This document shows positions 29,255 through 54,179 of a DNA stretch of 64,000 nt, in pieces (the first letter of the stretch is position 1; the number at the start of each line of letters is the position of its first letter). The notes under the pieces are model-generated. The model ran no database searches and had not been told where the DNA came from. It saw only the letters and a program-made list of their open reading frames with translations. Source of the DNA: an uncultured delta proteobacterium (GTDB lineage: Bacteria > Myxococcota > Myxococcia > Myxococcales > Myxococcaceae). A program made the translations under genes and the position numbers. The stretch lies in NCBI GenBank assembly GCA_963771175.1, contig CAVYSY010000046.1, forward strand, positions 96,001 to 160,000, given 5' to 3'.

Positions 29255-30619
29255 ATGGCCACCCGAGCCACGAGCAAGAAGAAGGCAGCCCCCACCACGA
29301 CGGTGGCCCTGACGCTGCCCGCCATCCACGAGAGCACCACCTCCAGCGGGTTGAAGGTGCTGGCCGCCGAGCGCGGGCCCCTGCCGCTGGTGGCCGCGCG
29401 GCTCGTCATCCGGGCCGGCAGCTCCACGGATCCGAAGGACAAGCACGGCCTGGCGGACTTCACCGCGCGCCTGCTGCGCCGGGGCACGGCGAAGATGAGC
29501 GCGGACGAGATCGACGAGACGATCGAGTTCGTCGGAGCGAGCTTCTCGGTGGGAGCCAACGAGGACCTGCTGTCGCTCTTCGTCGTCACGCCGGCCGAGC
29601 ACTTCCCGGCGATGCTGTCCATGCTGGGGCAGATCGTCCGCGAGCCCGCCTTCCCGGAGCGCGAGTTCGACATGGCGAAGATGCGGGCGCTGGCGGGCTT
29701 CGCCAACGATCTGGATGATCCGTCGGTGATCGCCGATCGGGCCTTCACGCGGGCGCTGTGGGGGGACCACCCGTACGGCCACGACGTGGGGGGCAGCACG
29801 CCGCACGTGCTCTCCTTCCAGCGGGAGGACGTGGTGCGCTTCCACCGGGAGCGGATGGGACCTCGGGTGGCGCTGCTGACGGTGGTGGGCGCGGTGAGCC
29901 CGAAGCGGGTGGCCGAGGAGGCGGAGAAGGCTTTCGCCGGCTGGGAGGGCGGGCCGGAGTCGCTGGCGGAACTGCCGCCGGGAGACAAGGTGGCCACGGG
30001 CCGGGTGCTGCTGGTGGACAAGCCGGAGCAGACGCAGTCGCAGGTGCGCATCGGCGGGCCGGGCTTCCGGCTCGGCCACCCGGACTACTTCCCGTCCACG
30101 GCGATGAACATCGCGCTGGGCGGAGGCTTCACCTCTCGGCTGGTGAACGAGGTGCGCGTGGAGCGCGGCCTGACGTACGGCATCCACAGCTACTTCGATA
30201 CGATGAACGCCGGGGGCGTGTTCGGCATCTCCACCTTCACCAAGACGGAGAACACGCGGGAGATCATCGACGTGTCGCTCGCCGAGGTGGCGAAGGTGCG
30301 TGAGGCGGGGATTCCCACGGCGGAGCTGAAGAAGGCCCAGCGCTACCTGGCGGGGCTGTACCCGCTGCGCACGGAGACGAACGAGTCCGTGGCATCGGTC
30401 ATCAGCGACATCCGGCTGAACGGGCTCGGGGACGACTGGGTGGAGAAGTTCCGCGAGCGGCTGCTGGCGGTGACCTCGAAGCAGACGGTGGCGGTGGCGG
30501 CGAAGTACCTGTTCGCGAAGTCGCCGCTCATCGTGGTGCTGGGGCGGGCCGAGGAAGTGAAGAAGCAGCTCAAGGGGCTGGGGCCGGTGACGGTGGTGCC
30601 AGCCACGGACTACCAGTGA
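29255..30619 (+). CDS. M16 family peptidase, non-catalytic partner subunit
   Basis: GLADFTARLLRRGT (HXXEH absent), LGGGFTSRL.NEVRVERGLTY. Adjacent to the catalytic subunit. Confidence 0.92.
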   Translation: MATRATSKKKAAPTTTVALTLPAIHESTTSSGLKVLAAERGPLPLVAARLVIRAGSSTDPKDKHGLADFTARLLRRGTAKMSADEIDETIEFVGASFSVGANEDLLSLFVVTPAEHFPAMLSMLGQIVREPAFPEREFDMAKMRALAGFANDLDDPSVIADRAFTRALWGDHPYGHDVGGSTPHVLSFQREDVVRFHRERMGPRVALLTVVGAVSPKRVAEEAEKAFAGWEGGPESLAELPPGDKVATGRVLLVDKPEQTQSQVRIGGPGFRLGHPDYFPSTAMNIALGGGFTSRLVNEVRVERGLTYGIHSYFDTMNAGGVFGISTFTKTENTREIIDVSLAEVAKVREAGIPTAELKKAQRYLAGLYPLRTETNESVASVISDIRLNGLGDDWVEKFRERLLAVTSKQTVAVAAKYLFAKSPLIVVLGRAEEVKKQLKGLGPVTVVPATDYQ

Positions 30620-31321
30620 GCGACATCCGCGTTCTCTTCGAGGGCGCGGGGCTGCTCGCGGTGGACAAGCCGGCGGGGATGCTCGTCATCCCCGGTCGCG
30701 GCGAGGGAAGCGGGCCGTCACTGCGCGAGGTGTTGGAGGCGAAGCTCGGGCGGAAGGTGTACGTGGTGCACCGGCTGGATCGGGACACCTCGGGGGTGAT
30801 GGTGTTCGCCCTGGATGCCGGAGAAGCACCGGACGCTGTCGATGGCCTTCGAGTCCGGGAAGGTGCGCAAGCGCTACCTGGCGCTGGTGGAGGGCCGGGT
30901 GGAGGCGCCGCGGGTGGTGGACGCGGCGCTGGTGCCGGCGCGCAAGGGGCGCATGCGGGTGGCGCGGCCGGGCGAGGAGGGGAAGCCCTCGCGCACGCGG
31001 GTGCGGCCGGTGGAGGTGTTCGCGGCGGCCTCGCTGGTGGAGGCCGAGCCCCTCACGGGCCGGACGCATCAGATCCGCGTGCACCTGCTGTCGGAGGGGC
31101 ACCCGTTGCTGGTGGATCACCAGTACGGGCGGGACGAGCCCCTGAAGGCGAAGGAGCTGGGCGGGGAAGGGGAGGAGGAGGTGCTGGCGCGGACGCCCCT
31201 GCACGCGGCGCGGCTGGAGTGGCCGGCGCTGCCGGGAGTGGAGGCGCGAGCGCTGGAGTCCCCCCTCCCGGCGGATATGGCGCGAGCCGTGGAACTGCTG
31301 CGCAAGGCGCCCTCGCTCTAG
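30616..31321 (+). CDS. RluA-family pseudouridine synthase; frameshift near 30820
   Basis: VDKPAG, VHRLDRDTSG, KRYLALV, TGRTHQIRVHL, LHA. Confidence 0.92.
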
Positions 31322-32688
31322 GCCACACCCCGGCCGCGCTGGGCGAGCTGCTCGGCGATCTCCGGGGTGGAACGGACCTCGGCCAGCGCGGGCTCCTGGT
31401 CGAGCGTCTCGAAGTCGTCGTAACCCGCCTGCAGCGCGCGCTTCAGCAGGTCCGTGGCCCGCTCCACCTGGCCGGCGCGCGCGTAATGGCAGGCGGCCTG
31501 ATACGCATCCTCCGCGCGCCCCGAGGCCTCGAAGGCGGTGGCTTGGAGCTCCGCCGCCGCGCCGAAGTCACCCCGGGCCGCCGCCACGTCCGCCAGCCGC
31601 GCGTTGCGCGGGGCCGGCGTCTTCCAGGCGAACTCCCGGGCGATGCGCTCCGCCTCGTCCAGCCGCTGGGCCTTCGTCAGCAGGTGCACCGCCAGTGCGG
31701 CGGCCTGATCCGTGGGCTCCTTCTCCACCGCGGCGAGCGCGTGGGGCAGGGCGCGATCCGGCATGCCCAGGGTGTTGAAGGCCATGGCCAGGCTGTAGGG
31801 CCGCGCGGCCTGGGGCGGCTCCACCTTCTCCAGGTGTGACACGGCGGCGCGGGCATTGCCCTCGGCGAGCGACACCCAGGCGAGCAGATCCCTCACCGCG
31901 TTGCTCTCCGGACCCGGCTTCGCCGCCGACAGGGCCAGGTGCCCCAGCCGGGCCGCCTCGGTCTCATTGCCGGAGCGCAGGGCCTGCCAGGCGCGAGCGA
32001 GCGCGTCCGGCTCGAGCTCCTCGACCTTCACGGGCTTCAGGGGCTTGAGATCCTTCGTCACCGAGAGGGCCTGCCAGCAGCCGTAGCCCATGAAGCCGAA
32101 CATGAAGGCGGCGTAGAACATGCGGGCGCTCAGGGCCAGGAGCGTCACGCCGGCGGCGGTGATGACTCCCAGCCAGAGGGCGATCCGCTGCCGGGTGGGC
32201 CCGAGGATGCCGCCCGCCACGTGGCCTCCATCGAGCGGAGGTACCGGCAGCAGGTTGATGATGCCCCACCCGAAGTTCACCCACATCAGATCCCGGAAGA
32301 TGACGTGGGTCGTGTAGCTGCGCGCGGGCACCAGATGGTCGACGCCCAGGATGATGGCCCCGAAGAGGAAGCCCGCGAGCGGCCCGGCGGCGGCGACGGC
32401 CACGCTCCGCCAGCGGCTCAACCCCTGGTGGTAGCAGAGGCCACCGATGGAATAGAGGCGGATGCTCGCCCAGCCGCTGCCCAGGCTCATGGACATCAGC
32501 GCGTGTCCCAGCTCGTGGATGAGGATGGACACGAAGCAGACGGCCACCCAGGAGAGGACCTGCGGCATGCCCCGGGCCCCGACCATCCCGAAGAGGGCCG
32601 TCACCAGCCAGAAGCTTGGCTCGACCACGACCGGGATGCGGCCGAGCGAGAATTGCAGGGAGAAGGGGGCGGCGGGTTGGGTGCTCAT
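31318..32688 (-). CDS. M50 (site-2) intramembrane metalloprotease with C-terminal TPR-like region
   Basis: IHELGH, AAGP, NLLPVPPLDGG, followed by helical Ala-rich repeats. Confidence 0.9.
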   Translation of the reverse strand: MSTQPAAPFSLQFSLGRIPVVVEPSFWLVTALFGMVGARGMPQVLSWVAVCFVSILIHELGHALMSMSLGSGWASIRLYSIGGLCYHQGLSRWRSVAVAAAGPLAGFLFGAIILGVDHLVPARSYTTHVIFRDLMWVNFGWGIINLLPVPPLDGGHVAGGILGPTRQRIALWLGVITAAGVTLLALSARMFYAAFMFGFMGYGCWQALSVTKDLKPLKPVKVEELEPDALARAWQALRSGNETEAARLGHLALSAAKPGPESNAVRDLLAWVSLAEGNARAAVSHLEKVEPPQAARPYSLAMAFNTLGMPDRALPHALAAVEKEPTDQAAALAVHLLTKAQRLDEAERIAREFAWKTPAPRNARLADVAAARGDFGAAAELQATAFEASGRAEDAYQAACHYARAGQVERATDLLKRALQAGYDDFETLDQEPALAEVRSTPEIAEQLAQRGRGVA

Positions 32689-32706
32689 GTTCCTCGGGAA
32701 TGAAAA

Positions 32707-33378
32707 TCAGTTCTTCGCGTCCACCCGGAACGCATTGGAATAGGTCTCTCTTCCCTCCTCGTCCACCAAGAGGATGAGGAAGTTGTTGCCGGGCGTGTCG
32801 ATGGTGAGCTGCTCCTGGCGCACGCCTCCGGAGAAGGGGCCGCTCTGGAAGCGGGTGGTGGTCGCGTTGCCCTGGAAGCGGAGGATGCTCATCGTCACCG
32901 TTCCCTCGAACCGATCGGCGTTCGTGCCCGTGGCATGGATGGTGACGGTGAAGGGCTGATCCTGGATCTGAACGCCGATGGGCTCGATCCAGAAGCCGAG
33001 GTAGGGCCGGACCTGGTAGGCCTGGGAGAGGGTGGCCTCGCGTCCATCCGGCAGCGACACCCGGAGGTCGTAGGTGCCCACCTCCAGACCCGGGTTCACG
33101 GTGCCCTCGAAACGGCCATTGCCCAGGTACCGCTCCAGCGGCACCAGCTGCGAGCCCACCTGCAGCGTCGGCTGGTCGAGCAGCTGTGCCGTCTGCGTGC
33201 CGTAGTCCACGAGGAAGCGCGGCTCCAGGTCGAGCTCCACGACGACGGCCTTGGACTCGGCGGCGCTCTGCTGCGTGGGCGCGACGGAGAGGATGTGGAA
33301 CTCCGTTGGCGTCGAGGGCTTCTCGGGCTCGCACGCGCACAGCAGCGCCACGAGCATGGGCAGTAGGACCGTTCTCAT
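32707..33378 (-). CDS. Putative lipoprotein with Ig-like beta-rich domains
   Basis: MRTVLLPMLVALLCAC lipobox, GTYDLRV, PFTVTI. ATG overlaps the upstream stop. Confidence 0.75.
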   Translation of the reverse strand: MRTVLLPMLVALLCACEPEKPSTPTEFHILSVAPTQQSAAESKAVVVELDLEPRFLVDYGTQTAQLLDQPTLQVGSQLVPLERYLGNGRFEGTVNPGLEVGTYDLRVSLPDGREATLSQAYQVRPYLGFWIEPIGVQIQDQPFTVTIHATGTNADRFEGTVTMSILRFQGNATTTRFQSGPFSGGVRQEQLTIDTPGNNFLILLVDEEGRETYSNAFRVDAKN

Positions 33379-34769
33379 AACGCGTACCTCACTCCCAGTG
33401 AGAGCGACAGCCCACCGGGCTGTGCCTTGATCTGCATCGTCCGGACGTCGGCGAAGCTGCCGCGCAGCTCGGCCAGGGCGCTCACCACACCCAGGTTCCA
33501 GGCCGCCTGGGCTCCGAGGAAGCCCGTGAACGTCCTCCCCGACTCCGTGTTCGCACCGGGGAAGAACTCGCTCGTCATCACCTGCTCGAAGTACATCATC
33601 CCGGCGCCCGCGCGACCGTAGAGCGAGAGCGGACCGCGCTCGAAGGCGAGGACCCGGGCGGAGAGCTGCAGCGGCATGGCCACTATCCGCGCGTTCAGCG
33701 GCCCGAGCTCCGCCACGCGGGGCTGGCTCGTGGAGCGGCGCAGTCCCACCTCCGCCTCCAGCGTGAACCGGCCACCGAGCGGCGGCAGGCGATACCCCAG
33801 GCCCCCCGAGACCAGGGGCCCGAGGTTGTCGCCGCCGGCGAAGAAACCTCCGGCCAGCAGGTGGAACGACAGGTTCTCCTTGCGCAGCCACGGCGCCCAC
33901 CAGGCCACCCCGGGCACCACGGCCGGCGCGGGAGGCTGCTTCGGCGGGGGGACGTGCGCGACGATCGGCGCCGACACCGGAGCCATGATCCGCGCCGCGC
34001 CGGTCCCATCCTTCCGATGGGCGTTCACCACCACGGCGCTCGCCGAGGGCTCGGGCTTCACGCGGAACACGCCCGGCGCCTCGGGCTGCTCCTCCACGTC
34101 GCCGCCCTGCACCTGCAGCTCCAACTCCGCGAGCGGGGTAGGGGCCTCGCCCAGCACGAGCAACCATCCCCCCTTGTCCGGCGGGATCACGTCGGGGCTG
34201 AGGAGGGCGAGCAGGGGCCGCTCGGGAGGCACGTCGAGCCGGGCGGTGCGGTTGGTCTGCTGGCCGTTGGCGGTGGCCAGCACGCGGGCCTCGCGCACGC
34301 CAGGGGGCACCTCCACCTGCACCTGGGCGCGGCCCTTGCGGTTGGTGAGGACGGGGCCGAAGCGCATGTCGGCCACCTGCACCACCACCTCGGCACCTGC
34401 GCCCACGTCCGTGGCCACGTCCAGCGTCGTGCGGCCCAGCAGGGGGATGTGGACGGTGGTGACCTTGGGCGGACCGGTGGGCGAGTCCACCCAGAAGGCC
34501 AGCACCGCCAGGAGGGGATAGCGGATGTCCGGGGGAACCCAGCGGTAGGAGTAGACGCCCCGGGCGGTGGCGGGCAGCGGCTGCAGACTGCCCGTGGATG
34601 CCATGGCCCGGAGCGGAGGCGTCCCGCGAGGCACCTTCACCTGCACCACCACCGCCTTGTCCTGGCCGAGCACCACCTGCGCGGGGGCCGCCGTCACCGG
34701 GAAGGGGACCGCCTCCGCCAGCAGTGGCAGGGCGAGCAACAACAGCAGAGGCAGGAGCGGCACTCGCAT
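33375..34769 (-). CDS. Exported protein with Ig-like N-terminal part and probable C-terminal OM beta-barrel
   Basis: Signal MRVPLLPLLLLLALPLLAEA. C-terminal alternating amphipathic strands ending LSLSLGVRYAL. Confidence 0.7.
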   Translation of the reverse strand: MRVPLLPLLLLLALPLLAEAVPFPVTAAPAQVVLGQDKAVVVQVKVPRGTPPLRAMASTGSLQPLPATARGVYSYRWVPPDIRYPLLAVLAFWVDSPTGPPKVTTVHIPLLGRTTLDVATDVGAGAEVVVQVADMRFGPVLTNRKGRAQVQVEVPPGVREARVLATANGQQTNRTARLDVPPERPLLALLSPDVIPPDKGGWLLVLGEAPTPLAELELQVQGGDVEEQPEAPGVFRVKPEPSASAVVVNAHRKDGTGAARIMAPVSAPIVAHVPPPKQPPAPAVVPGVAWWAPWLRKENLSFHLLAGGFFAGGDNLGPLVSGGLGYRLPPLGGRFTLEAEVGLRRSTSQPRVAELGPLNARIVAMPLQLSARVLAFERGPLSLYGRAGAGMMYFEQVMTSEFFPGANTESGRTFTGFLGAQAAWNLGVVSALAELRGSFADVRTMQIKAQPGGLSLSLGVRYAL

Positions 34770-38814: not shown

Positions 38815-39740
38815 ATGTCTCTTCTCGTCGTTGGCTCGGTCGCGCTGGACTCGGTGGAAACCCCCTTCGGTCTGAAGGAGGACGTCCTTGGTGGCTCGGC
38901 CACCTTCTTCTCCACCTCCGCGTCCTTCTTCACCCCGGCCAAGGTGGTGGCGGTGGTGGGCGAGGACTTCCCCCAGGCCCACCTGGACTTCCTGCGCGGC
39001 CGCGGCGTGGACCTCGAGGGCGTCACCCGGGAGAAGGGCCGCACCTTCCGCTGGAAGGGCCGCTACGGCTGGCAGCTCAACGAGGCCGCAGACGCTCGAC
39101 ACCCAGCTCAACGTCTTCCAGTCCTTCTCGCCCAAGCTCCCCGAGAGCTACCGCGACGCCCAGTTCGTCTTCCTCGGCAACATCCACCCGGAGCTCCAGT
39201 GCCAGGTGCTGGATCAGGTGCAAGAGCCCCAAGCTGGTCGCCGCCGACACGATGAACTTCTGGATCAACGGCAGCCGGCAGGCGCTCCTCAAGACGCTCA
39301 AGCGCGTCGACCTGCTCTTCGTCAACGACGCCGAGGCCCGCCAGCTCTCCGGCGAGCACAACATCGTCAAGGCCGCCCGCGCCATCCTGGCCATGGGCCC
39401 CCAGCGCGTGGTCATCAAGCGCGGCGAGTACGGCGCGCTGCTCTTCGATCAGGAGCACATCTTCGCCTGCCCGGCCTTCCCGCTGGCGGACGTGTTCGAC
39501 CCGACCGGCGCCGGGGACACCTTCGCCGGCGGCTTCATGGGCACCCTGGCCCAGAATGGCCAGATCGACTCCCAGGTGCTGCGCCGCGCGATGGTGATGG
39601 GCAGCGTGATGGCCTCCTTCACCGTGGAGAAGTTCAGCCTCGAGCGCCTGCGCGAGGTGACCGTCAAGGACATCCACGCCCGGTTCTCTGAGTTCAAGCG
39701 ACTCACGCACTTCGAGGACCTCGGCTCGCTGGAGGGCTGA
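38815..39740 (+). CDS. PfkB-family carbohydrate/nucleoside kinase; two frameshifts
   Basis: VVGSVALD, GGSA, VNDAEA, IKRGEYG, DPTGAGDTFAGG. Confidence 0.92.
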
Positions 39741-41783: not shown

Positions 41784-42632
41784 ATGGACGAACAGACCTT
41801 CATGAAGCTGATGCAGATCCTCCCCAAGTCCGCGCTATCCACGGCGGTGGGGATGGCCACGCGCCTGCCCGTGCCGGCGCCACTGCACCGGGCGGCCATC
41901 AAGGCCTTCGCGAAGTCCTACAACGTGGACGTCGCCGAGGCCGAGCACACCCTCGAGCACTACCCGACCTTCGCGCAGTTCTTCACCCGCGGCCTCAAGG
42001 CGGGCCTGCGTCCCGTGGAGCCGGGTGAGAAGGTCGTCGTGTCCCCGGTGGACGGCGCGGTGTCCCAGGTGGGCTACTCCGAGCACGGCCGTGTCATGCA
42101 GGCCAAGGGCATCCACTACACCGTGGACGAGCTGCTCGGGGACCCCCAGGCCGCGAAGCCCTTCCACGGCGGCGCCTGGACCACCATCTACCTGTCGCCC
42201 CGCGACTACCACCGCATCCACTCGCCGCTCGGCGGGAAGATCACCGGGTACTCGTACATCCCCGGCGAGTTCTGGCCCGTGAACGTGGCCTCGGTGAAGT
42301 ACAAGCAGGCGCTCTTCTGCGTGAACGAGCGGCTCGTCACCTACCTCGGACACCGCTGGCCGGCCAGTGCGCCGTGGTGAAGGTGGGCGCCACGTGCGTG
42401 GCGCGCATCAAGGCCGCCTATGACGACGTCGCTCACGCACACGGGCAAGCCGGGCAAGGTGCACCGCTACGACTCCGCCATTCCGGTGGAGAAGGGCGGG
42501 GAGCTGGGCCGCTTCGAGATGGGCTCCACCGTCATCCTGCTCTTCGAGCCGGGTCGCGTGCGCTGGGACGAGAGCCTCGCAGCCGGAGGCCGGTGGTGCG
42601 CATGGGCCGGCGCATCGGAGAGGTCGTCGTGA
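41784..42632 (+). CDS. psd: Phosphatidylserine decarboxylase proenzyme, frameshifted
   Basis: [49 protein letters not shown] (self-cleavage GST). Confidence 0.93.
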
Positions 42633-43926
42633 GTCAGAAGGTCAGTGGCGTCAAGGGGATGAACGACCTCCTCCCCGGTGAGGTCGAGGTGTGGCAGCAC
42701 CGTCGAGCGCACCGCCCGCGAGCTGTTCGGGCGCTTCGGCTACGGCGAGGTGCGCACCCCCATGGTCGAGGACACCGCGCTCTTCGTGCGCAGCGTGGGC
42801 GAGGAGACCGACATCGTCGGCAAGGAGATGTACACCTTCGAGGACAAGGGCGGCCGCAGCCTCGTCCCTGCGCCCCGAGGGCACCGCGCCGGCGGCGCGC
42901 GCGTACATCGAGCACTCCGTCGTCAACCAGGAGCCGCTCACGCGCTGGTTCTACATGGGCCCGATGTTCCGCTACGAGCGCATGAAGACGGGCGCTACCG
43001 CCAGTTCCACCAGATCGGCGCCGAGGCCTACGGCGCGCAGGAGCCCGCCGCAGGACGTCGAGGTGATGGACATGGTGGTGCAGTTCCTCGAGGCGCTGGG
43101 GCTCACCGACGTCTCGCTCAACCTCAACTCGCTCGGGGACGAGGCGTGCCGGCCCGTCTACCAGGCGAAGCTGGTGGAGCACCTGCGCGCCCACCGCGAG
43201 CGAGCTGTGCGCCGACTGCCAGGAGCGGCTGGATGCGCAACCCGCTGCGGGTGCTCGACTGCAAGAACCGAGCGCTGCCAGGAGATCGCCAGCGCCGCGC
43301 CCAACATCCTCGAGTTCCTGTGCGAGCCGTGCCGCGCGCACTTCGCCGAGGTGCAGCGCAAGCTGGACGCGCTCGGCATCCGGTACGTCGTCAACCCGCG
43401 CATCGTGCGCGGGCTCGACTACTACACGCGCACCACGTTCGAGTTCATCGCCTCGCACCCCGCGCTGGGCACCGCCAGCACCGTGGGCGGCGGCGGGCGC
43501 TATGACAAGCTGGTGAAGAGCCTGGGCGGGCCGGACGTGCCCGCGGTGGGCTTCGGCCTCGGGTTGGATCGGCTCTGCCTGCTGCTCAAGGAGAGCGGCC
43601 AGCAGTTCTCCCAGCCGGCGGACCTCTTCGTCGCCGTGGCGGACGAGGGCTCGGCGGATGCCGCCTTCGTGCTCGCCAGCACGCTGCGCCGCGAGGGCCT
43701 GCGCGTGGAGTTCGACACGCGCGGCGGCAGCCTCAAGAGCCAGATGAAGCGCGCCGACAAGGTGGGGGCCCGCTACACGCTGGTGCTCGGCCAGAACGAG
43801 CGCGAGAGCGGCAAGGCCCAGCTCAAGCCCATGGCGGGCGGAGAGCCCCTCGCCGTGGAGCTCGCCCACGTGGCCCGCACCTTGCGTGAAGCACTCTCCC
43901 GGTCCTCGACTCCCTCGGCCTCCTGA
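42629..43926 (+). CDS. hisS: Histidine--tRNA ligase, several apparent frameshifts
   Basis: [67 protein letters not shown]. Confidence 0.95.
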
Positions 43927-44042
43927 GCCGCGGGGAAGGGTGGATAGCCGGTAAAGCCCGCCAGACCCCTGACAATCCAAGGGGTTGGGCGGGCGGCGAT
44001 TTGGGGGTGTCGCCGAGGTGACGTTACAATCGTGCTCCAGTG

Positions 44043-44447
44043 ATGCCACAGGACTGGACGCACGCGGAGCGAGAGGGCCCGTGCTGGATTCCCATCCGGG
44101 GAGACAGCATGTGGCCCTCTTTGCGTTCGGGCGACGTGGCGCGCGTGGAGCCGCTGACGGAGTCTCCTCGGCCCGGCGAGGTGGTGGTCGCGCGCTTCGA
44201 CCATGCGCTGGTGGTGCACCGCGTGCGCCGCTGTGACGCGGACGCGTGCGTGCTGCGCGGGGACAACGTGCCGGCGGAGGATCCGCCCCTGCCTCGCGCG
44301 CGGCTGCTGGGGCGGGTGCGCTTCGTGCGTCGTGGGGGCGAGGTGCTCGCGCCGGCCCGGTGGGATCGGGGGCCCCTGCGTTGGGGCCGCTGGCGCGTGG
44401 TGGTGAAGCGCGGGCTGGCGGCGCTGCTCGGGCGGAGGCGCGCATGA
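44043..44447 (+). CDS. S24/S26-family signal-peptidase-like protein (Ser/His type, no N-terminal TM)
   Basis: GDSMWPSLRSGD (catalytic Ser box), PGEVVV, VVHRV, LRGDN, LLGRV. Confidence 0.8.
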   Translation: MPQDWTHAEREGPCWIPIRGDSMWPSLRSGDVARVEPLTESPRPGEVVVARFDHALVVHRVRRCDADACVLRGDNVPAEDPPLPRARLLGRVRFVRRGGEVLAPARWDRGPLRWGRWRVVVKRGLAALLGRRRA

Positions 44448-44731
44448 GCTTCCGAGCGGACAGCATCCCCCATCGGCGCGAGGGCGCGGACGGTCAGCGC
44501 TTCGGCGAGGACTTCGTGGTGTTGGATCCGGAAGGTCACATGCTTCGGGGTCTCAACGAGACGGCCGCGCGGGTCTGGGAGCTGGTCGACGGCCGGCGCA
44601 CCGCGCGCGACATCGCCGGAGTGGTGGCGAGCGAGTACGGCGTGGAAGTGGAGCGGGTGCTCGGGGACTGCCTGTCCTTCCTCGCGCGACTCGTGGGACA
44701 TGGGCTGTTGGACGCGGAGGTGCATCGATGA
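44444..44731 (+). CDS. PqqD-family RiPP recognition element (RRE), 95 aa
   Basis: EDFVVLD..GLNETAARVWELVDGRRTARDIAGVVASEYGVEVERVLGDCLSFLARLVGHGLL. ATGA overlap with the upstream gene. Confidence 0.92.
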   Translation: MSFRADSIPHRREGADGQRFGEDFVVLDPEGHMLRGLNETAARVWELVDGRRTARDIAGVVASEYGVEVERVLGDCLSFLARLVGHGLLDAEVHR

Positions 44732-45186
44732 GAGTGCTCGGGATGGCGTCTGTGCTCCTGCTGCTGGCCGCGTGCGACCAAGGCAGCGTCCCGAATCCTC
44801 CCGACTGGGGGTCGTGGAATGGCATCACTCCGCCGGTGCGGCCCACGCCGCCGCTGCCTCCGCTGGTGGGCGTGGCGGAGGTCGCCTACGTGCCCGAGGG
44901 CGCGCGCGGTCTGTCCGAGGTGACGTCGGTGGAGGTGCGGCTGCGCGTGAGTGGCATCGTCAACTCGGCGTCGGTGGACGCGGAGTTCCTCGCTCCCGGC
45001 CCCGCGGTGTACGAGCGGCGCACCCGCACGGTCGAGGCCCTCCCCACGGAGCAGCGTGAGCTCGTCTTCAGCCTGCCGGTGGCCGCCACCCAAATCCCCA
45101 TCCATGGCCTGAGTGGCTCCTGGGAGGTGCGCTTCTTCGTCGATGGCGCGCCCCTGACCACCACCGCCTTCACCCTGGAGCGCTGA
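44728..45186 (+). CDS. Putative lipoprotein with Ig-like domain
   Basis: VLLLLAAC lipobox, Pro-rich tether, beta-rich domain ending GSWEVRFFVDG..FTLE. ATGA overlap. Confidence 0.8.
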   Translation: MRVLGMASVLLLLAACDQGSVPNPPDWGSWNGITPPVRPTPPLPPLVGVAEVAYVPEGARGLSEVTSVEVRLRVSGIVNSASVDAEFLAPGPAVYERRTRTVEALPTEQRELVFSLPVAATQIPIHGLSGSWEVRFFVDGAPLTTTAFTLER

Positions 45187-45190
45187 CGCC

Positions 45191-48100
45191 ATGATCGCCC
45201 GACTGCTCGCGCTCCTGTTCCTGCTGCTGCCCGCCGCCGCGCTGGCCCAGAACGCGTGGACCGTCACGCCCGTCGACGGCTCCGCGGTGATGGGGGAGAT
45301 CTCCTCGCTCGTCTTCGAGGTGCGCAACGCCTCCACCAGCACCCGACCGATCAACGAGATCAGCCTCGCGGTGGATGGCACCGCCTATGACGTCGACGGT
45401 GGGGATGCTCCGGTGGGCTGGACGGTGAGCACCATTGATCGCAAGGAGCGCCGCATCACCTATTCGGCGAGTGGCTCCTGCGCTCCGGGGCCGTTGGGGA
45501 TCGCGCCGGGAGCCTCCGTGCGCTTCACGCTGCGGCTCGTGGGCCTCGCCGCCAACGCCGATGTCAACGACGCGCTGCTGGCCGGCAATGCCAGCAAGAA
45601 GGCGAGCGAGGCGCGCGACACCTGCTCCGGCACCACGTTCTCCGGAGACCCGACGCTGGCGCGCTGGAAGCGGGTGGGCCTGTCCGCGAGCCTCTCGGTG
45701 CTGCCGCGCACCCTCCAGCTCGGGGGCAACGTCACCGTGCAGCTCGTCGTGGTGAACCGCTCGCTGGTGAACCAGAGCGGCATCTCCCTGAGCGGCCCCG
45801 TGGTGGTGGGGAGCGCCACCTTCGACAAGACGGTGGTGAGCTTCTCGCCGGCCACGCTCTCGCTCGCGCCCGGGGCCACCGGGGCCTTCACCGGCAAGCT
45901 CCAGGCCACGGGGGAGGGGACCGCCTTCCTCCAGGCCTCGGCGGCCAACGCCGCGGTGAGCACCGCGCAGACCTCCTCGCTCCATGTGAACGTGAGCAGC
46001 TTCCCGGCGCTCATCGAGGCGCTGCCCTCCAGCATCGCCCCCGGCGATACGGTGACGGTCCGCCTCGTGGTGTCCAACCCCTCCAAGAGCACCTACCGGG
46101 ACGTCGTCCCCCGTGCTCTTGGATTCGTGGGAACGGCGACGCCCTCGATCCTGAGCGGCCCCACTCCCGCGAGCGCCACGTCGCTCAGCCCGGGCGCGTC
46201 CATCTCCTTCGTCTGGAAGTACCGCGTGGACGGGCCCATTGGCGCCACCTTCGCGTTCCAGGGCCAGGCGGATGCCACGCGCGACGGCGTGCCCCTCTCC
46301 ACGGGCCCGGTGGTCTCCTCTCAAGGGCGCATCGTGGAGCACCGGCTGGCCATCGAGCCCGCCTCCCTCATCTCCGGCGCGAGGAACAAGACGCTCCGCT
46401 ACACCCTCTACAATGGCGGCACGGTGGAGATCCGCTCCGTGAAGCTGCTCGTGCCGGACACGACCTTCTTCACCGTGTCGGGCACGCCCTTCGCCAACGA
46501 CTCCAGCGGGTGGAACACCAGCCCCAACAAGGGCTACACGTGGACGGCCCCCACTGGTGCGCCCGGCATCACTCCGGGCTCGCAGAAGACCTTCGCCATC
46601 GACTACGCCGCCATTGGCACCGTCGCCAGCGACACGGCCTTCAGCCACCAGTTGGAGCTGACGCAGGTGAGCGGCTCCACCACCAACGCCCTCCGCGTGG
46701 ATGCTCCGGTCACCGTCTTCGTCAACCGCGTGCTGCCCGAGGTCGAGTCCCTCGTGGCGCTCGCCGGGCCCCAGCGCAACACGCTCCTGTGGACCAACCC
46801 AGCCGATCATGACGGTGTGCTCGTGCTGCGCTCCGTGGGCTCCGCCCCCAGCACCGCTCCCGAGCCGGGTCGCCGCTATGTCTTGGGCGAGACGCTCGGC
46901 AACGCCACGGTGGTGTACTCGGACGAGCTGAGTGTGGCCTCCTCCTTCGCCGACACCGGGCTCACCGATGGCACCCCCTACGTCTACCGGGTCTACAACC
47001 ACGACGCGCTGTACCGGTACTCGCCGGGCAACGCGCCGCAGTCGCTCGGGTTGAAGTCGACTCCCACGGGCCGCGGGCCCGGCCAGCCGCTGTGGTGCTA
47101 CAGCGTCGGCTTCTCCTCGCTCCAGCAGCCCATCACCGAGCCGGGTCCCACCGGGGGCATCTTCACCTCCAACTCCTCGGGCCGCGTGACGGCCAGCCTG
47201 ACGAACACGTCCTCGCCCGAGCTCGACGGCAACGAGCGCTGGCGCCCGGTGCAGCTCCAGGGCGCCGTGCAGAGCCGCTTCCCGCTCGTCCCGCTGCACG
47301 GTCTTCCCGGGCAGTACATCCTCACCGGCGATCAGGCGGGCTACCCCTACGCCATCCGCGCCGAGACCGGAGAGCTCCTCTGGCGCGGCGCCTCGCTCGG
47401 CATCATCCAGTCCTTCCCCGTGGTGCAGCTCCACGACTACGCCGGCACCGCATACAAGGCGGCTCACCCCAATCGCGATCTGGCCTTCTTCGCCACCCGG
47501 TTGAGCACCGGCACCGACAACAAGGTGGTGGCGCTCGATGCCGCCACCGGCGTGCCCGTGTGGACGTACGCCCCGGGCGACCTCGGCATGGTGAGCGGGG
47601 GCATGTTGATCGACTACACGTACAACCGACTGTTCGTGGGCGCTCGCTCCAACGGAGGCTCCCTGGCCTCGCTGCGCGTCCTCGATAGCCTCACCGGCAC
47701 CGAGCTGGCCCGGCTGTCCCTTGGGGATATCGACTTCGGCCTCGTCCGCTATGGCTCGGCGCTCCTGGCGCTCGTGACGAACAGCGACGGCACCGTGTAC
47801 GGCGTCGACATGGCGAAGCTGACCGTGGCCTGGAGCGCGGCGGTGGCCACCCGCCCGTCGGCCTCGGTGCCCGCGTTCTCCCAATATGCCCGGCCGGTGA
47901 CGAGTGGCTTCGTCGTGAGCATCCTGGGCGCCACCGACGCGGAGGGCAGGGTGGAACGCTGGAACCTCACCACCACCTCCACGGGCACCACGGTGACGCG
48001 GACCTGGTCCACCCCCATCCCGAGCCCCTCCGGCTCCTTCTCGGCCACCCTGGGGGGCGTGCAGCGCCTCTATGTCGGCGGCAAGGACGAGAAGGTGCAC

Positions 48101-48253
48101 GAGCTGGAGATGGCCACCGGCGTGGATGGCAGGCAGATCTCCCTCCCTGGCGCTCTGGCCATCGGCACTCCGACAGTGGACACCTCCGTGTCGCGCCTCC
48201 ACGTGGGCACCCAGGATGGCCGCGTCTGTGCCTTCCAGGTGCCCTTCCCCTGA
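45191..48253 (+). CDS. Large exported protein (1020 aa): Ig-like repeats, FN3-like domain, C-terminal PQQ-like beta-propeller
   Basis: Signal MIARLLALLFLLLPAAALA. Thr/Ser/Val-rich strands, FADTGLTDGTPYVYRVY (FN3-like), and YAIRAETGELLWR, VALDAATGVPVWTY, ELEMATG, VGTQDGRV propeller motifs. Confidence 0.85.
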   Translation: MIARLLALLFLLLPAAALAQNAWTVTPVDGSAVMGEISSLVFEVRNASTSTRPINEISLAVDGTAYDVDGGDAPVGWTVSTIDRKERRITYSASGSCAPGPLGIAPGASVRFTLRLVGLAANADVNDALLAGNASKKASEARDTCSGTTFSGDPTLARWKRVGLSASLSVLPRTLQLGGNVTVQLVVVNRSLVNQSGISLSGPVVVGSATFDKTVVSFSPATLSLAPGATGAFTGKLQATGEGTAFLQASAANAAVSTAQTSSLHVNVSSFPALIEALPSSIAPGDTVTVRLVVSNPSKSTYRDVVPRALGFVGTATPSILSGPTPASATSLSPGASISFVWKYRVDGPIGATFAFQGQADATRDGVPLSTGPVVSSQGRIVEHRLAIEPASLISGARNKTLRYTLYNGGTVEIRSVKLLVPDTTFFTVSGTPFANDSSGWNTSPNKGYTWTAPTGAPGITPGSQKTFAIDYAAIGTVASDTAFSHQLELTQVSGSTTNALRVDAPVTVFVNRVLPEVESLVALAGPQRNTLLWTNPADHDGVLVLRSVGSAPSTAPEPGRRYVLGETLGNATVVYSDELSVASSFADTGLTDGTPYVYRVYNHDALYRYSPGNAPQSLGLKSTPTGRGPGQPLWCYSVGFSSLQQPITEPGPTGGIFTSNSSGRVTASLTNTSSPELDGNERWRPVQLQGAVQSRFPLVPLHGLPGQYILTGDQAGYPYAIRAETGELLWRGASLGIIQSFPVVQLHDYAGTAYKAAHPNRDLAFFATRLSTGTDNKVVALDAATGVPVWTYAPGDLGMVSGGMLIDYTYNRLFVGARSNGGSLASLRVLDSLTGTELARLSLGDIDFGLVRYGSALLALVTNSDGTVYGVDMAKLTVAWSAAVATRPSASVPAFSQYARPVTSGFVVSILGATDAEGRVERWNLTTTSTGTTVTRTWSTPIPSPSGSFSATLGGVQRLYVGGKDEKVHELEMATGVDGRQISLPGALAIGTPTVDTSVSRLHVGTQDGRVCAFQVPFP

Positions 48254-48260
48254 GCCCTCG

Positions 48261-48443
48261 ATGACGCGCGATCCCCAGCCACCTCCCGAGGGAGCTCCGC
48301 CCGCGCCGGCCGTGGCCTCGCGTGCGCGCGTCTACGAGCCCCCCGCGGTGCTCTGGGAACAGCCCTTCGTCGCGCTCGCGCAGGTGTCCTTCAACGGCGA
48401 CTACGGCTGCGAGATCCCCGGCTCGTGCGAGGATATTCCGTGA
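48261..48443 (+). CDS. Putative RiPP precursor peptide (60 aa)
   Basis: MTRDPQPPPEGAPPAPAVASRARVYEPPAVLWEQPFVALAQVSFNGDYGCEIPGSCEDIP. Has a YxxPxV motif and fills the gap between two co-directional genes. Confidence 0.7.
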   Translation: MTRDPQPPPEGAPPAPAVASRARVYEPPAVLWEQPFVALAQVSFNGDYGCEIPGSCEDIP

Positions 48444-48459: not shown

Positions 48460-49254
48460 GTGGTGACGCTGTCGCTGGCGGGCTGGACGGTGTCCCTGGA
48501 GTCCGAGGACACGGCGCTGGAGGAGCTGCTCGTCCGGGCGTGCCTCGCGTTCCGCACCTCCGAGCCGGCTCGGGCGCACGTCCGGGTGCTGCGTCCGGCG
48601 GTCTCCCGTCCGAGTCCCGCCGTGCGCTCCCTGCCGGAGATCCGCCCCGTCCCTGGTGGCGGTCAGCGGGTGGAGGGGGAGGACTACGTCGCGGACATCG
48701 CTCCCGAGGGCCGGAGCGCCACCGTGACGGGCGAGGGCCGCTTCCCCGTGGACACGGTGTTGAAGGTGATGCTCGCGGGCGAGCTGGCGAGGCGCGGGGG
48801 CCTGCTGGTGCACGGGGTGGCGGTGGAGCACCTCGGACGCGCTGCTCTGTGGACGGGCCCGTCCGGGGCGGGGAAGAGCACCCTGGCCGGGCTGTGGGCG
48901 AGGTCTGGCGGCACGGTGCTGACCGATGAGCTGGTGGCGGTGTGGCCCGAGGCGGGAGGCTGGCGCGCCGCCGGGACGCCGTGGAACGTGGGCATGCCTC
49001 GCGAGGCCTCGCTGCGCGCGGTGGGCCTCCTGGGCTGGGACTCGGGTTCGCGCTGGGAGCCCGTGGGGGCGGGGGAGGTGGCCCGGGTGCTGCTGCTCAA
49101 CGCGCTCCTGCCCGAGTCCTCCGCCGCCGGACGCCGCCATTTGATGGCTACGGCGGGCCGCCTGCTGGCGGAGGTGGAGACGGCCCGGCTCGTCTTCGCG
49201 CGAGATGCCTCCGCGGCGGACGTGGTGCGCGCGGGGCTGGAGCGCGGCTTCTAA
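48460..49254 (+). CDS. HPr-kinase-related P-loop protein
   Basis: GLLVHGVAV, ALWTGPSGAGKSTLA, VLTDELVAV, GTPW. GTG start preceded by AGGAGG. Confidence 0.82.
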   Translation: MVTLSLAGWTVSLESEDTALEELLVRACLAFRTSEPARAHVRVLRPAVSRPSPAVRSLPEIRPVPGGGQRVEGEDYVADIAPEGRSATVTGEGRFPVDTVLKVMLAGELARRGGLLVHGVAVEHLGRAALWTGPSGAGKSTLAGLWARSGGTVLTDELVAVWPEAGGWRAAGTPWNVGMPREASLRAVGLLGWDSGSRWEPVGAGEVARVLLLNALLPESSAAGRRHLMATAGRLLAEVETARLVFARDASAADVVRAGLERGF

Positions 49255-51086: not shown

Positions 51087-52817
51087 TCAGGACGCGTAGC
51101 GTCCCGTCTCGTCGGAGACTCCGCTCTCGGAGGCGGTCCGGTGCTGCGAGGCTGACAGGCTGTCCGGGACCAGTCCCATGAGCTGACGCAGGAGTTGCTC
51201 GGGCTCCACGGGCTTGGGCAGGAAGGCCTCGGCGCCCGCGTCGAGCGCGCGCTGGCGGACGTGCGGCCGGTTCAACCCGCTCATCACCACCACCCGTGTG
51301 TCGCGCGTGAGCGGGTGCTGCTTGAGGCCTTCGCACAGCCTCAGCCCGTCCACCCAGTGCAGCACCACGTCCAGGAGGATGGCGGTGGGGGGCCGACGCG
51401 CCACCGCGCAGAACAGCGCCAGCTCGTCCGCGAAGGCCACGACCCGGGCGCCCGTGGACTCCAGGAGCTGCGTCATCGCCTCGCGCTGATCCGGGTCATC
51501 GTCCACGATGTAGTAGAGGTCCGGCTCCAGCGTGGGGATCGTCGTGGGCAGCGGCTCCACCGTCGTCCGCACCCAGGAGGCCATGGTCTCGCGGATGCCC
51601 GCCCACCGGGCCGCGCCCAGCAGGGCGAGCGGGGTGGGCGTAATGAGTCCCAGCACGCCGCCGCCCATGCCGCCCATGGACCCGTGGTTGCGCGCCGTCA
51701 CGAAGGCCTGGGGCGCCCGCCGTCCGGCCCGGCGCAGCCAGGAGATGGAGCGAGCCCCCGCCGCCGAGTCCTCGAGCAGCTCGGAGAGGCCCTCGCGCAC
51801 GTAGCGGCGCTCCAGGGCCGGGGCCTCCAGGCCCGCGTCCAGCAGGGCCACCGCCGCGCGGCTGCACGAGGCCAGCGTCTCGGAGAGCCCGAGCTGCAGC
51901 GGGTGGCCGAACGCCGCCGCGCCCACCGTGAGCTGTCCGGGAGCCACGAGCGTGCGGCCGGGGCCGTAGGGCAGCCGCGTCGTCTCCAGGGCGGCCAGCT
52001 CGAAACCTTCCTCCACCAGCCCGTCGCGGGCGGCCATCATCAGGGCCTGGCACAGGTCCGCCGGAGTCACCGCGGCCCCGAAGGCGAGCGCGTACACCGA
52101 GTGCGCACCGGGGATCAGCAGCAACCCGTCCACCGAGGGCATGGGAGCGATCCACAGCCGCGCGAGTGGCGCCAGGGAGAGCCGGGAGGTCGCGTGCCGC
52201 AGCCGGGCCTGCACCGCGGCGATGGTGGGCGCGGGGCTGAAGCGAGGGAAGAACGCATCACCCAGCGAGGGCCCGGAGCCCGTGGCCAACGCGACCGCGT
52301 GGAAGCGCTCGCCGCTGCCCTGGGCCCGCACCACGAGCGGACCGCTCTTGCGCACCGTGGCCGGAGCATCCGGAGCTGGCGGCTGGTTCTCCACCCGCTC
52401 CACGCGACGGGGCACGAAGCGCGCGCCCTGGGACGAGGCCGCGCCCGCGAGCACCTCGCGCACCAGCGCCAGCCCCCCCTGTCCCTGCGGCCACCCGTCC
52501 ACCACCCACAGGCCCCCCGGCGCCGCCGGCAGCACCTCGCGGTTGCCCTCGGAGAGGATCTCCACCCCGCGCAGCTCGTGCGCCCGCCACTCGGGAGGCA
52601 CCCGGCAGCCGAGCGCGGCCAGTCGCGAGCGACACTCGGGCGTGAGGATGGCGGGGGGGGCGATGGTGCCCGGCTCGCCGCTCTCGTACACCCGCACGTC
52701 CAGCGCACTGCCTCGGGCCCGGCCATTGAAGAGCAGCGAGGCGGCGAGCCCCGCTCCGGCGATCCCGCCCCCGATGATGGCCACCCTCGAACCGTTCGCC
52801 AGCCTGCTGCCTTTCAT
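51087..52817 (-). CDS. FAD-dependent oxidoreductase-like domain fused to a C-terminal receiver domain
   Basis: VAIIGGGIAG (GxGxxG), ALATG, and C-terminal IVDDD, ILLD, VMSG, FLPKP. Confidence 0.85.
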   Translation of the reverse strand: MKGSRLANGSRVAIIGGGIAGAGLAASLLFNGRARGSALDVRVYESGEPGTIAPPAILTPECRSRLAALGCRVPPEWRAHELRGVEILSEGNREVLPAAPGGLWVVDGWPQGQGGLALVREVLAGAASSQGARFVPRRVERVENQPPAPDAPATVRKSGPLVVRAQGSGERFHAVALATGSGPSLGDAFFPRFSPAPTIAAVQARLRHATSRLSLAPLARLWIAPMPSVDGLLLIPGAHSVYALAFGAAVTPADLCQALMMAARDGLVEEGFELAALETTRLPYGPGRTLVAPGQLTVGAAAFGHPLQLGLSETLASCSRAAVALLDAGLEAPALERRYVREGLSELLEDSAAGARSISWLRRAGRRAPQAFVTARNHGSMGGMGGGVLGLITPTPLALLGAARWAGIRETMASWVRTTVEPLPTTIPTLEPDLYYIVDDDPDQREAMTQLLESTGARVVAFADELALFCAVARRPPTAILLDVVLHWVDGLRLCEGLKQHPLTRDTRVVVMSGLNRPHVRQRALDAGAEAFLPKPVEPEQLLRQLMGLVPDSLSASQHRTASESGVSDETGRYAS

Positions 52818-52865
52818 CCGCGCCCTCGCTCCGCCGTCCATCGGTCTTCTCGGGGTTGTGGGTTG

Positions 52866-53822
52866 TCAGTGCCGCTGAACCTTGGGGGGCGGCATCTCCG
52901 ACGCCCCGTACACCACCACACGATCACGCCCCTCGCGCTTGGCCTCGTAGAGCGCGGCATCGGCGGCGCTCATCAGCACCTCCGTGCTCTCGCGGGGGTG
53001 GGCGGCCGAGTGATCGGCGATTCCCACGCTCACGCTCAATCCAAAGGGGGCGGGCCGCCCATCGCCGCGCGTCACCTTCACGGTGCGCAGCCCGGCGCGG
53101 ATGCGCTCGGCGAACACGGCGGCCTCGATGGCTGTCTGGTGCGGAAGCAGCGCGACGAACTCATCGCCCCCGAAGCGCGCCGCGAAGTCCACCTCGCGCA
53201 GGTTGGTGCGCAGGTGACTGGCCAGCGCGAGGATCGCCCGGTTGCCCACGTCGTGTCCCATGCCATCGTTGATGGCCTTGAGGTGGTCCAGGTCGATGAT
53301 CACCACCGACAGCGGATACTGGTAGCGGTTGGCCCGCTTGAACTCCTCGTCCAGTCGCATGGAGAGCGCCCGGAAGTTGGCCAGTCCGGTGAGCGCGTCC
53401 GTCTGGGCGAGCACCTGCAAGCGCTGCTGCTGCTCGCTCTGGCGCAGGGCGCGGTCGATGCGGGCCAGCAACTCGCGGGGGTTGGCCGGCTTGTGGACGA
53501 AGTCGGACGCGCCCTTCTCCAGGCACGTCTCCAGCGTGGCCTCGTCGGTGTCGCCGGTGAGGAAGATGATGGGGACGGACTCGGTCGCCTCTTCCTTCTG
53601 CAGGGACTCGAGCACCGCCAGCCCGTCCTCCTGATCCAGGAACCGGTCCAGCAGGATCAGGTCCGGACGCCGCTCCCGGGCGAGCACCAGGCCCGACTGG
53701 CCATCGCTCGCCCCGAGGACGTCGAAACGGGCGGAGAGCAGCTCCACCAGACTGTCCCGAGTACCCGGGTCATCCTCCACGACCAGGATCAGGGCTCTAT
53801 CCCCGCGGCGGTCGCGTTCCAT
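52866..53822 (-). CDS. dmxB: REC-GGDEF diguanylate cyclase (DmxB-like)
   Basis: VVEDD, ILLD, FLTG, HKP receiver; TDALTGLAN, DLDHLKAINDGMGH, REVD I-site, RFGGDEF, ADAALYEAKREGRD. Name assigned from recalled architecture and synteny. Confidence 0.8.
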   Translation of the reverse strand: MERDRRGDRALILVVEDDPGTRDSLVELLSARFDVLGASDGQSGLVLARERRPDLILLDRFLDQEDGLAVLESLQKEEATESVPIIFLTGDTDEATLETCLEKGASDFVHKPANPRELLARIDRALRQSEQQQRLQVLAQTDALTGLANFRALSMRLDEEFKRANRYQYPLSVVIIDLDHLKAINDGMGHDVGNRAILALASHLRTNLREVDFAARFGGDEFVALLPHQTAIEAAVFAERIRAGLRTVKVTRGDGRPAPFGLSVSVGIADHSAAHPRESTEVLMSAADAALYEAKREGRDRVVVYGASEMPPPKVQRH

Positions 53823-54179
53823 GCTCCGCTCCACTTCCTGCGCCTGCCGTCCAATGGCAGGCCGAAAGTCTCGGGTGCCACGCCCGAAGGGCTGCCCCCC
53901 ACGCCCGTCCACCGCCGCTACCCACGGCGAGCACCCCACGTCCTCCTTCTCCTTCACCCGAGACCCCCGGCCGCCAAGTCCGATGTCTCCTCACCCCGGG
54001 CCGGCTCTCCCGGTGGCGAGGCATCCCTTGGAGCAAGGGGCGTGCCCTCGTGAGACCGGGAGAGGGAGGAGTGATTCCAGGGACTTGCGGCACCCTTCGG
54101 TGGAGGAGGTGCCCCCGACTGGGCAAGAGTTGCAGCGTTCCCGGGTATGCCACCAGTAGGAATTCCCGGGAGGTGTGGA

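Follow-up and report, generated by a model that had tools for sequence, protein, structure and literature searches.

A 60-residue peptide gene kept between hisS and miaA in the Myxococcaceae, and its predicted processing by LPP-like enzymes

The stretch of DNA that we have analysed, 64,000 nucleotides referred to below as the window, comes from the genome of an uncultured myxobacterium (G000 in our labels) and contains, between hisS and miaA, an open reading frame of 60 codons. This locus raises the question of whether so short a frame is a gene at all and, if so, what the enzymes encoded next to it would make of its peptide. A sequence-only reading had proposed a precursor of the RiPP type; by comparing the frame, its leader, its core and its neighbouring genes across myxobacterial genomes and with the LPP system, we have found support for this proposal, while several of its details have changed.

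The reading frame, its operon and its conservation

On the forward strand, the genes between hisS and miaA encode, in this order, an S24/S26 peptidase, an RRE, a lipoprotein, a 1020-aa secreted protein, the peptide and an HprK-like kinase (Table 1). The genes of the peptidase, the RRE and the lipoprotein are connected by stop/start overlaps, the gene of the secreted protein, i.e. the propeller gene, starts 4 nt after that of the lipoprotein, and the ATG at 48261 is located 7 nt past the stop codon of the propeller gene. This ATG is the likely start codon of the peptide, a grade that we keep because no Shine-Dalgarno sequence precedes it; in the homologues of the peptide, 7-45 residues are found N-terminal of the motif tyrosine. 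A scan for promoters and terminators has given nothing above chance.

Table 1. Features of the hisS-miaA locus in window coordinates, with the evidence for each assignment.
Feature	Position	Strand	Evidence
Soluble S24/S26-fold serine peptidase, LppS-like leader peptidase (Ser23, His60, Asp81; no transmembrane segment)	44040..44447	+	Pfam Peptidase_S24 5.5e-11, alignment, hydropathy, model, fold search
Discrete PqqD-type RRE, LppB-like (N38, D75, F79)	44444..44731	+	Pfam PqqD 9.5e-17; PDB matches
Predicted lipoprotein, LLLAAC lipobox, conserved C-terminal beta-rich domain	44728..45186	+	Orthologue in DK1622 annotated as a putative lipoprotein
1020-aa secreted protein: signal peptide, inferred beta-sandwich stalk, C-terminal BamB-like beta-propeller	45191..48253	+	Pfam PQQ_2; structure model
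Precursor peptide, 60 aa	48261..48443	+	Translation, codon statistics, dN/dS, homologues; start codon likely
Conserved leader of 16 residues (Tyr-16 to Ala-1; residues 25-40), to which RRE and peptidase are predicted to bind	48333..48380	+	dN/dS 0.15, conservation, LppA register
Predicted 20-aa core; predicted phospho-site Ser+3 at 48387-48389; Cys at 48408-48410 and 48426-48428	48381..48440	+	Conservation, LPP S3 phosphorylation
HprK-like kinase, LppK-like (His118, GxSGxGKST, Asp156); GGAGGAG ribosome site before GTG 48460	48460..49254	+	NCBIfam HprK_rel_A/B below cut-off; PDB HprK 4.7e-6

Translation of window positions 48261-48443 confirms the layout that had been proposed: a proline-rich N-terminus, the motif YEPPAV at residues 25-30, the junction ALA|Q at residues 38-41 and a 20-residue core that contains two serines, one tyrosine and a C-x5-C pair. 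It is also correct that automatic listing gives an over-long start, as the ORF lister yields 48072..48443 as the sole version of the frame. The start at 48072 is an artefact, because the stretch 48072-48260 overlaps the upstream gene in another frame; the codon statistics of this stretch are those of non-coding sequence (GC2 0.86, GC3 0.71), and the conserved part of the peptide (48327-48440) has a GC2 of 0.45 and a GC3 of 0.92.

The reading frame is under purifying selection, as the sequence-only reading required, and the selection is specific to the frame: in 27 distinct DNA sequences of the 31-residue Myxococcus/Corallococcus form of the peptide, dN/dS is 0.24 overall in its own frame (0.15 in the leader, 0.36 in the core), as against 1.65 (+1), 2.22 (+2) and 1.98 (reverse) in the other frames. 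The proline-rich N-terminus is nearly free, with a dN/dS of 0.85 for the 10 codons upstream of the tyrosine. The 60-aa ORF is, in our view, a real gene, selected in its own frame only. That it is a chance small frame or a non-coding spacer, as the missing Shine-Dalgarno sequence and the commonness of the loose motif might suggest, is exceedingly improbable in the face of this selection, of the 155 predicted proteins that match the peptide, and of a frame that has been preserved through length changes in the core. The motif alone is no evidence of a gene, because YxxPx[VIL] is carried by 1246 ORF ends in the six frames of G000, 212 of which also have two cysteines; a relaxed LPP pattern, composed after both sequences were known, has a single match in the same genome, at the window peptide.

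The peptide profile matches 87 of 172 genomes at the level of the Myxococcaceae (family f1 in our labels), nearly always in a single copy. The peptide is present in all 32 Myxococcus-type (genus g32) and all 21 Corallococcus-type (genus g27) genomes and in 11 of the 16 congeners of G000; in the remaining five congeners (G001, G009, G013, G014 and G015), the propeller, the orthologous kinase and the peptide are all absent together. A kinase search of 41 genomes has returned 14 close loci, each with the peptide just upstream (14/14). None of the seven genomes of genus g37, several of them closed, has a match to the kinase, the S26 peptidase, the peptide or NTase-A; together with g28 and g29, this genus is a case in which myxobacteria with large genomes have naturally lost the entire system. 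The peptide locus itself is single-copy and vertically kept between hisS and miaA.

In M. xanthus DK1622, the counterparts of the neighbouring proteins are Q1D612 (peptidase), Q1D611 (RRE), Q1D610 (lipoprotein) and Q1D609 (propeller protein), and the peptide is annotated in Myxococcus merely as hypothetical (WP_020478134). The named matches among the 120 listed are likewise hypothetical or uncharacterised, except for one automatic "Lipoprotein" label; P0188, a protein of 751 aa in the cluster of the peptide, has been set aside as an unrelated protein rather than a fusion. In a literature search that covered few subscription papers and no omics supplements, we have found no description of the locus, and term searches of PMC12710340 and PMC7470986 and passages of PMC5067487 have given none either.

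Two observations concern the surroundings of the operon. At window positions 41784-43926 and about 38888-39740, hisS, a phosphatidylserine decarboxylase gene and the gene of a PfkB-type kinase appear split or truncated across frames, which suggests indel errors of assembly. Just past miaA, on the minus strand (51087-53957), are located a receiver-GGDEF gene and the gene of a 584-aa receiver protein, which probably correspond to dmxB (MXAN_3735) and MXAN_3734 of the developmental c-di-GMP locus of M. xanthus.

Leader, cut site and processing enzymes

The comparison that carries our reading is with the linear polyphosphorylated peptides (LPP), encoded by lppAKBSDN of Paenibacillus alginolyticus (Popov et al. 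2026, published May 2026; PMC13381572). According to the accessible part of that report, the SipW-like peptidase LppS (S29/H68/D93) cuts LppA after T-1 and requires the RRE as well as F-3, E-2 and T-1, its N-terminal helix docking on LppB; Y-16 and P-13 of LppA bind LppB via D70 and N33; and the HprK-like LppK places 1-4 phosphates on Ser3, while S3T and S3Y are not modified. LppN was inactive in that study. The system is described there without a final product or function and the family is called restricted to Bacillota; Supplementary Data 1, in its accessible part, contains 4 peptidase rows from Myxococcota, with precursors undefined there, and 0 from Myxococcaceae.

Common to both systems are a discrete RRE, a SipW-like Ser/His/Asp leader peptidase without a cyclase, an HprK-like kinase, and the leader register Y-16, P-13, V-11, L-10, Q-7 with a serine at +3. 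These residues and P-6 are the seven identities of an alignment of the peptide with LppA, made by eye, that is free of gaps over 19 positions; on this register, the cut is predicted at ALA|Q and the phosphate on Ser43 (Ser+3). Because the enzymes of the cassette are homologous to the tested LPP enzymes, we infer the binding, the phosphorylation and the cleavage site by analogy: we consider it likely, with a probability of roughly 0.7, that the cassette RRE would bind the precursor at its YxxP leader, that the HprK-like kinase would phosphorylate Ser+3 and that the soluble S26-type peptidase would cut between Ala-1 and Gln+1, yielding a 20-residue two-cysteine phosphopeptide. The calculated mass of the core is 2128.87 Da unmodified, 2126.86 Da in oxidised form, 2206.82 Da when it carries one phosphate and 2189.80 Da when pyroglutamate is added to that phosphate.

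The junction ALA|Q had originally been argued from the A-x-A rule of signal peptidases. The junction itself stands, since it coincides with the experimentally mapped LPP register (Tyr at -16), and the rule is formally obeyed by 117 of the 120 best homologues, with alanine at both -3 and -1; the argument is weaker, however, as LppS cuts after F-E-T, and in distant cassettes of this type the positions -3 to -1 read P-x-G or P-x-T. The proline-rich, polar leader contains no Sec-type h-region before the A-x-A, and the cut-site prediction is based on the LPP register of the sequences and not on the signal-peptidase rule. F-E-T is replaced by A-L-A in the window peptide, and T-1 is found solely in a distant cassette (L176), where the junction, T|AAS, resembles the T|AQS of LppA. 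In lasso leaders, the register would place the cut after the glutamine, one residue later; this placement has been dropped in favour of the LPP register. The Thr at -2 that is a feature of lasso leaders is absent from the best 120 homologues, in which -2 is leucine in 115 and phenylalanine in 5.

Both serines and the tyrosine of the core had been named as phospho-acceptors. Ser+3 is the one that is backed, being serine in 113 and threonine in 7 of the best 120 homologues, and it is the sole invariant one of the core serines; the tyrosine has to be given up, as just 29 of the 120 cores contain one and LppK left S3Y unmodified. Since these 120 homologues were selected with a profile and are hence biased towards conservation, the peptides picked by their position beside a kinase are to be set next to them: Ser or Thr occurs at +3 in 40 of 41, and, among the peptides of other cassette types, 9 of 34 have no Ser/Thr at leader positions 17-23. 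Pyroglutamate at the N-terminal glutamine is possible (Gln+1 in 104/120) but would be optional, with Gln+1 in 18 of 27 sequences of the Myxococcus group.

A conserved YxxP and cysteine pair had been expected to go with a variable core. The first part has been borne out, the leader being constrained and exactly two cysteines occurring in 120 of the 120 best homologues; the core, however, is not freely variable, as PG is present in 114 and the terminal proline in 116 of them. The core ranges from 15 to 27 aa, and it is nearly constant across Myxococcus and Corallococcus.

The peptidase has the intact Ser/His/Asp set that an S26-type enzyme should have: S23 and D81 are invariant in the alignment, H60 occurs in all 22 rows, and the three residues correspond to S29, H68 and D93 of LppS (matched by eye to the supplement row). 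It is soluble by hydropathy, i.e. not a membrane-anchored signal peptidase I: in 79 of 81 peptidase stretches, no segment of 19 residues exceeds a hydropathy of 1.8, and the copy in the window reaches 0.34; processing is thus likely cytoplasmic. The model of the peptidase ends in a basic C-terminal helix; its residues 1-10 are of low confidence and form no helix, so that the docking helix of LppS onto LppB is not seen. The best PDB matches of the RRE are TbiB1 (5v1u) and LppB (9x8z; profile against 9x8z 2.6e-10); its N38 and D75, invariant in 29 sequences, and F79 fall on N33, D70 and F74 of LppB, and the proposal that the YxxP leader would suit this RRE gains from the correspondence of the invariant pair. 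A third PqqD domain of the genome (contig C24, 25578-28778; L053) is located beside an MFS-like gene and an ORF of unknown function, outside these cassettes.

The differences from LPP are also marked. The host belongs to Myxococcota and not to Bacillota; the core of 15-27 aa with two fixed cysteines is set against a Gly/Asn-rich, cysteine-free LppA core of 45 aa, and A-L-A against F-E-T; the MsbA-like exporter (LppD) and the nucleotidyltransferase (LppN) are missing from the window cluster, which in turn includes a lipoprotein and a giant propeller protein; and the window system is single-copy and vertically kept, whereas LPPs are patchily distributed. The window system would work like LPP but is without two of its defining features, the F-E-T junction and the in-cluster exporter, and we set it apart as a variant.

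The phosphorylated and phosphoglycosylated lasso peptides paeninodin and pseudomycoidin, as far as described in the accessible parts of PMC8498205 and PMC5067487, share the YxxP leader, a discrete RRE that presents the leader to the peptidase, an HPr-kinase homologue acting on a serine of the precursor and a nucleotidyltransferase that glycosylates the phosphate. The window locus differs in having no macrolactam cyclase (asparagine-synthetase-like), no transglutaminase-type B2 protease and no Thr-2, and its serine lies near the start of the core, while that of the phosphorylated lasso peptides is C-terminal. A term search of a 2023 review of RiPP proteases has given no S24/S26 entry.

Related cassettes and the chemistry they suggest

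The kinase profile matches 203 of 356 genomes of the phylum. We have compared 40 distant kinase loci, selected by the length of their contigs (36 from 69 kinase matches and 4 found earlier); in the stretches retrieved, an S26-like gene is present in 34 of them and an RRE in 34. A large exported-type protein is adjacent in 27: a C25 peptidase in 9, an FG-GAP/Ig (Big_13) protein in 13, a type I propeller in 3, RCC1 in 1 and NHL in 1. The closed genome G265 keeps a nucleotidyltransferase, S26 peptidase, RRE, peptide, giant protein, lipoprotein and kinase together in L176, the giant protein being 24% identical over 782 aa to that of the window. Of the 8 long S26 ORFs tested in related type II cassettes, 7 carry a fused GNAT domain, which fits a cut followed by capping of the N-terminus of the peptide.

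G000 itself has a second cassette, of the FG-GAP type, on contig C32 (578.5-586.7 kb; L031:8502-16596, minus strand), with an RRE, a giant lipoprotein with an FG-GAP propeller, a YxxP two-cysteine peptide, a kinase and an S26-GNAT fusion; the giant lipoprotein is found in three overlapping frame pieces, probably assembly errors. The loci L104-L109 (genera g6 and g34) show a cross-wired arrangement: after the type I propeller gene come a Trp-led six-cysteine peptide and, in convergent orientation, an S26 gene whose active-site region is changed, while the RRE and the kinase of the same genomes sit elsewhere with an FG-GAP giant.

The window kinase and RRE also match the models of the HprK_rel_A (TIGR04352), HprK_rel_B (TIGR04355) and SynChlorMet ScmC/ScmD cassettes weakly (24.7 against a cut-off of 200 bits; 19.3 against 100); we have found no paper on such HprK-related/PqqD/radical SAM cassettes. 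Radical SAM/SPASM genes occur in related cassettes of the phylum: a scan of 76 of the 105 candidate ORFs has placed them in 12 distant loci out of 40, and they are also present in L043, L045 and L050, with the type I-like L177 among the loci that carry one, and two unrelated-looking SPASM matches are located elsewhere in G000. One might thus ask whether the peptide is the remnant of a radical SAM pathway, its cysteine pair being cross-linked in trans or the pathway having decayed. This is very unlikely: there is no radical SAM gene at the window locus, tblastn of three cassette radical SAM proteins against G000, which is 82% complete, has no match at E<1e-8, and decay is unlikely because all parts are intact and under constraint.

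A second alternative concerns the absence of further genes: between hisS and miaA, there is no transporter or exporter, no nucleotidyltransferase, and no macrolactam cyclase or transglutaminase-type B2 protease. This, together with the soluble peptidase with its basic C-terminal helix and the single-copy, vertically kept locus, so different from the patchy LPPs, would also suit a cytoplasmic phospho-proteolytic switch, in which the kinase and the peptidase act on a peptide that regulates how the surface protein is expressed or exported, without the release of an end product. We regard such a switch as quite unlikely, as the cassette contains no regulator gene, the fixed cysteine pair with its PG turn suggests an oxidised loop, and the GNAT fusions, radical SAM enzymes and nucleotidyltransferases of related cassettes point to chemical maturation.

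Propeller protein, nucleotidyltransferase and the fate of the product

Beyond the processing steps of the LPP-like reading, more tentative ones are suggested by gene order, co-loss and equal transcript level: the two cysteines might close into a disulfide loop after leaving the cytoplasm, and the product might not be a diffusible antibiotic but act at the cell surface together with the propeller protein and the lipoprotein, with which it is co-transcribed. The giant propeller protein, the most constant neighbour of the peptide, had gone unmentioned in the sequence-only reading. Its C-terminal 505 aa are modelled at pLDDT 95 as a beta-sandwich and a BamB-like propeller, whereas its N-terminal half matches no assigned family; Foldseek returns BamB and designed 8-bladed propellers as best folds, and the dehydrogenase role suggested by some database names is not supported. 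In L093 (1197-3215), the lipoprotein domain and the propeller are fused in a single 673-aa ORF, which suggests that the two proteins may act together.

A homologue of the propeller protein occurs in 92 of 301 genomes of the class. Of 76 propeller loci (some genomes appear twice), 68 have a peptide directly after the gene, in 6 cases a different, Cys-richer, Trp-led one; of the other 8, 3 are at a contig edge, 1 has the peptide nearby on the opposite strand and 4 have no adjacent peptide. In G066 and G095, both propeller copies are without an adjacent peptide, which is found elsewhere beside RRE and kinase or S26 and RRE, and in G023 the peptide is separated from the enzymes, and its 3-kb locus contains no propeller gene; where cassettes have been broken up, peptide, RRE, kinase and S26 peptidase are all retained (5/5 genomes).

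Transcription has been followed in three raw-read RNA runs, all from a single study, of an organism that shares about 96% identity with the locus of G155 and is not that of the window. Reads cover the cassette along its full length; across the peptide, the depth amounts to 40-67 for first mates on the minus strand and 11-35 for those on the plus strand, where the expected-strand reading assumes the usual stranded protocol, the opposite-strand depth is substantial and there is no silent control stretch. The depth over the peptide is level with that of the 3' end of the propeller gene, with no peak of its own, and the excess fades inside the kinase gene. A run of Logan contigs (X6), indicating presence only, has been excluded as expression evidence.

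These data bear on a possible though less favoured alternative, in which the same processing leads to a free peptide, secreted or intracellular (a signal, a metal chelator or an antimicrobial), the giant protein being its receptor or simply a neighbour under the same regulation. There is no single conserved binding site, because unrelated giant proteins fill the slot in different cassette types; peptide and propeller are separated in some genomes; and the two invariant cysteines could bind metal in the cytoplasm. High-titre RiPP precursors, in contrast to the peptide here, show a transcript excess, the locus has no exporter, a large exported-type protein still accompanies the module in distant loci (27/40), and the near-constant core of Myxococcus and Corallococcus is unlike that of conflict peptides; these points speak against a free peptide.

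A candidate for further modification is encoded away from the operon. On contig C57 of G000 (30561-34082; L225), there are two strong, uncharacterised PF14907 (NTP_transf_5) nucleotidyltransferase genes in a polysaccharide locus that also encodes a Glycos_transf_4 initiating transferase, glycosyltransferases, a UDP-glucose dehydrogenase and a Wzy_C protein. The nucleotidyltransferase gene that immediately follows the initiating transferase (C57:33054-34082) is the orthologue of MXAN_1045 of DK1622. MXAN_1025-1052, which contains MXAN_1045, is a Wzx/Wzy locus according to the accessible part of PMC7484181, and we take it to be the BPS cluster of PMC7310880, of which part was accessible. In the corresponding locus of G155, the two nucleotidyltransferase genes are separated by an inserted FG-GAP/HYR protein (L226:9812-12733).

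By a hand count in the family, PF14907 at E<=1e-30 is found in 126 of the 140 genomes that have the kinase and in 3 of the 31 that lack it, with 11 of the latter 31 scored from their absence in the match list and the unpublished G110 included. A single-protein nucleotidyltransferase query, run on 68 chosen genomes, matches all 6 positive controls, 8 of the 14 family genomes in which the kinase match is weakest (6 of 14 are without a match) and, at E<1e-20, 3 of the 30 family genomes that lack the kinase; in genus g62, it matches 4 of the 6 genomes with the kinase and none of the 10 without, and as related genomes are not independent, all such co-occurrence counts overstate. In g62, the gene immediately precedes that of the peptidase on its 5' side in G265, G350 and G262 and is a neighbour of the kinase in G233, and homologues lie inside the related cassettes L176, L178 and L195; the nucleotidyltransferase of the L185 cassette has no match to the query. 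The MXAN_1045-type enzyme thus co-occurs with the peptide module. The second paralogue (327 aa, beside the UDP-glucose dehydrogenase) does not: it occurs in module-negative genomes too and has been rejected as a partner.

Window system and LPP may in this way both be linked to polysaccharide loci via an NTP_transf_5 enzyme. In pseudomycoidin, a nucleotidyltransferase glycosylates the phosphate (PMC8498205, accessible part), and from this the LppN-like MXAN_1045 orthologue might, more tentatively than the processing steps, add a sugar to the phosphate of the peptide. An extension that we consider unlikely, but worth stating, is that the phosphopeptide serves as a linker, its Ser+3 phosphate glycosylated by MXAN_1045 and its two-cysteine loop docked in the propeller of a giant surface protein anchored by the lipoprotein, as a RiPP that ties or primes a surface polysaccharide. 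If true, this would be the first function for LPP-type peptides, and it would explain why the module occurs beside capsule genes in Bacillota and beside giant exported proteins in Myxococcota.

LPPs have until now been described from Bacillota only, and the window-type system is conserved in the genus of a genetic model organism, M. xanthus. With an exact predicted cut site, a predicted phospho-site, calculated masses and a candidate glycosylating enzyme in a locus for which mutants exist, the role of the predicted phosphopeptide can be tested through surface, motility and development phenotypes.
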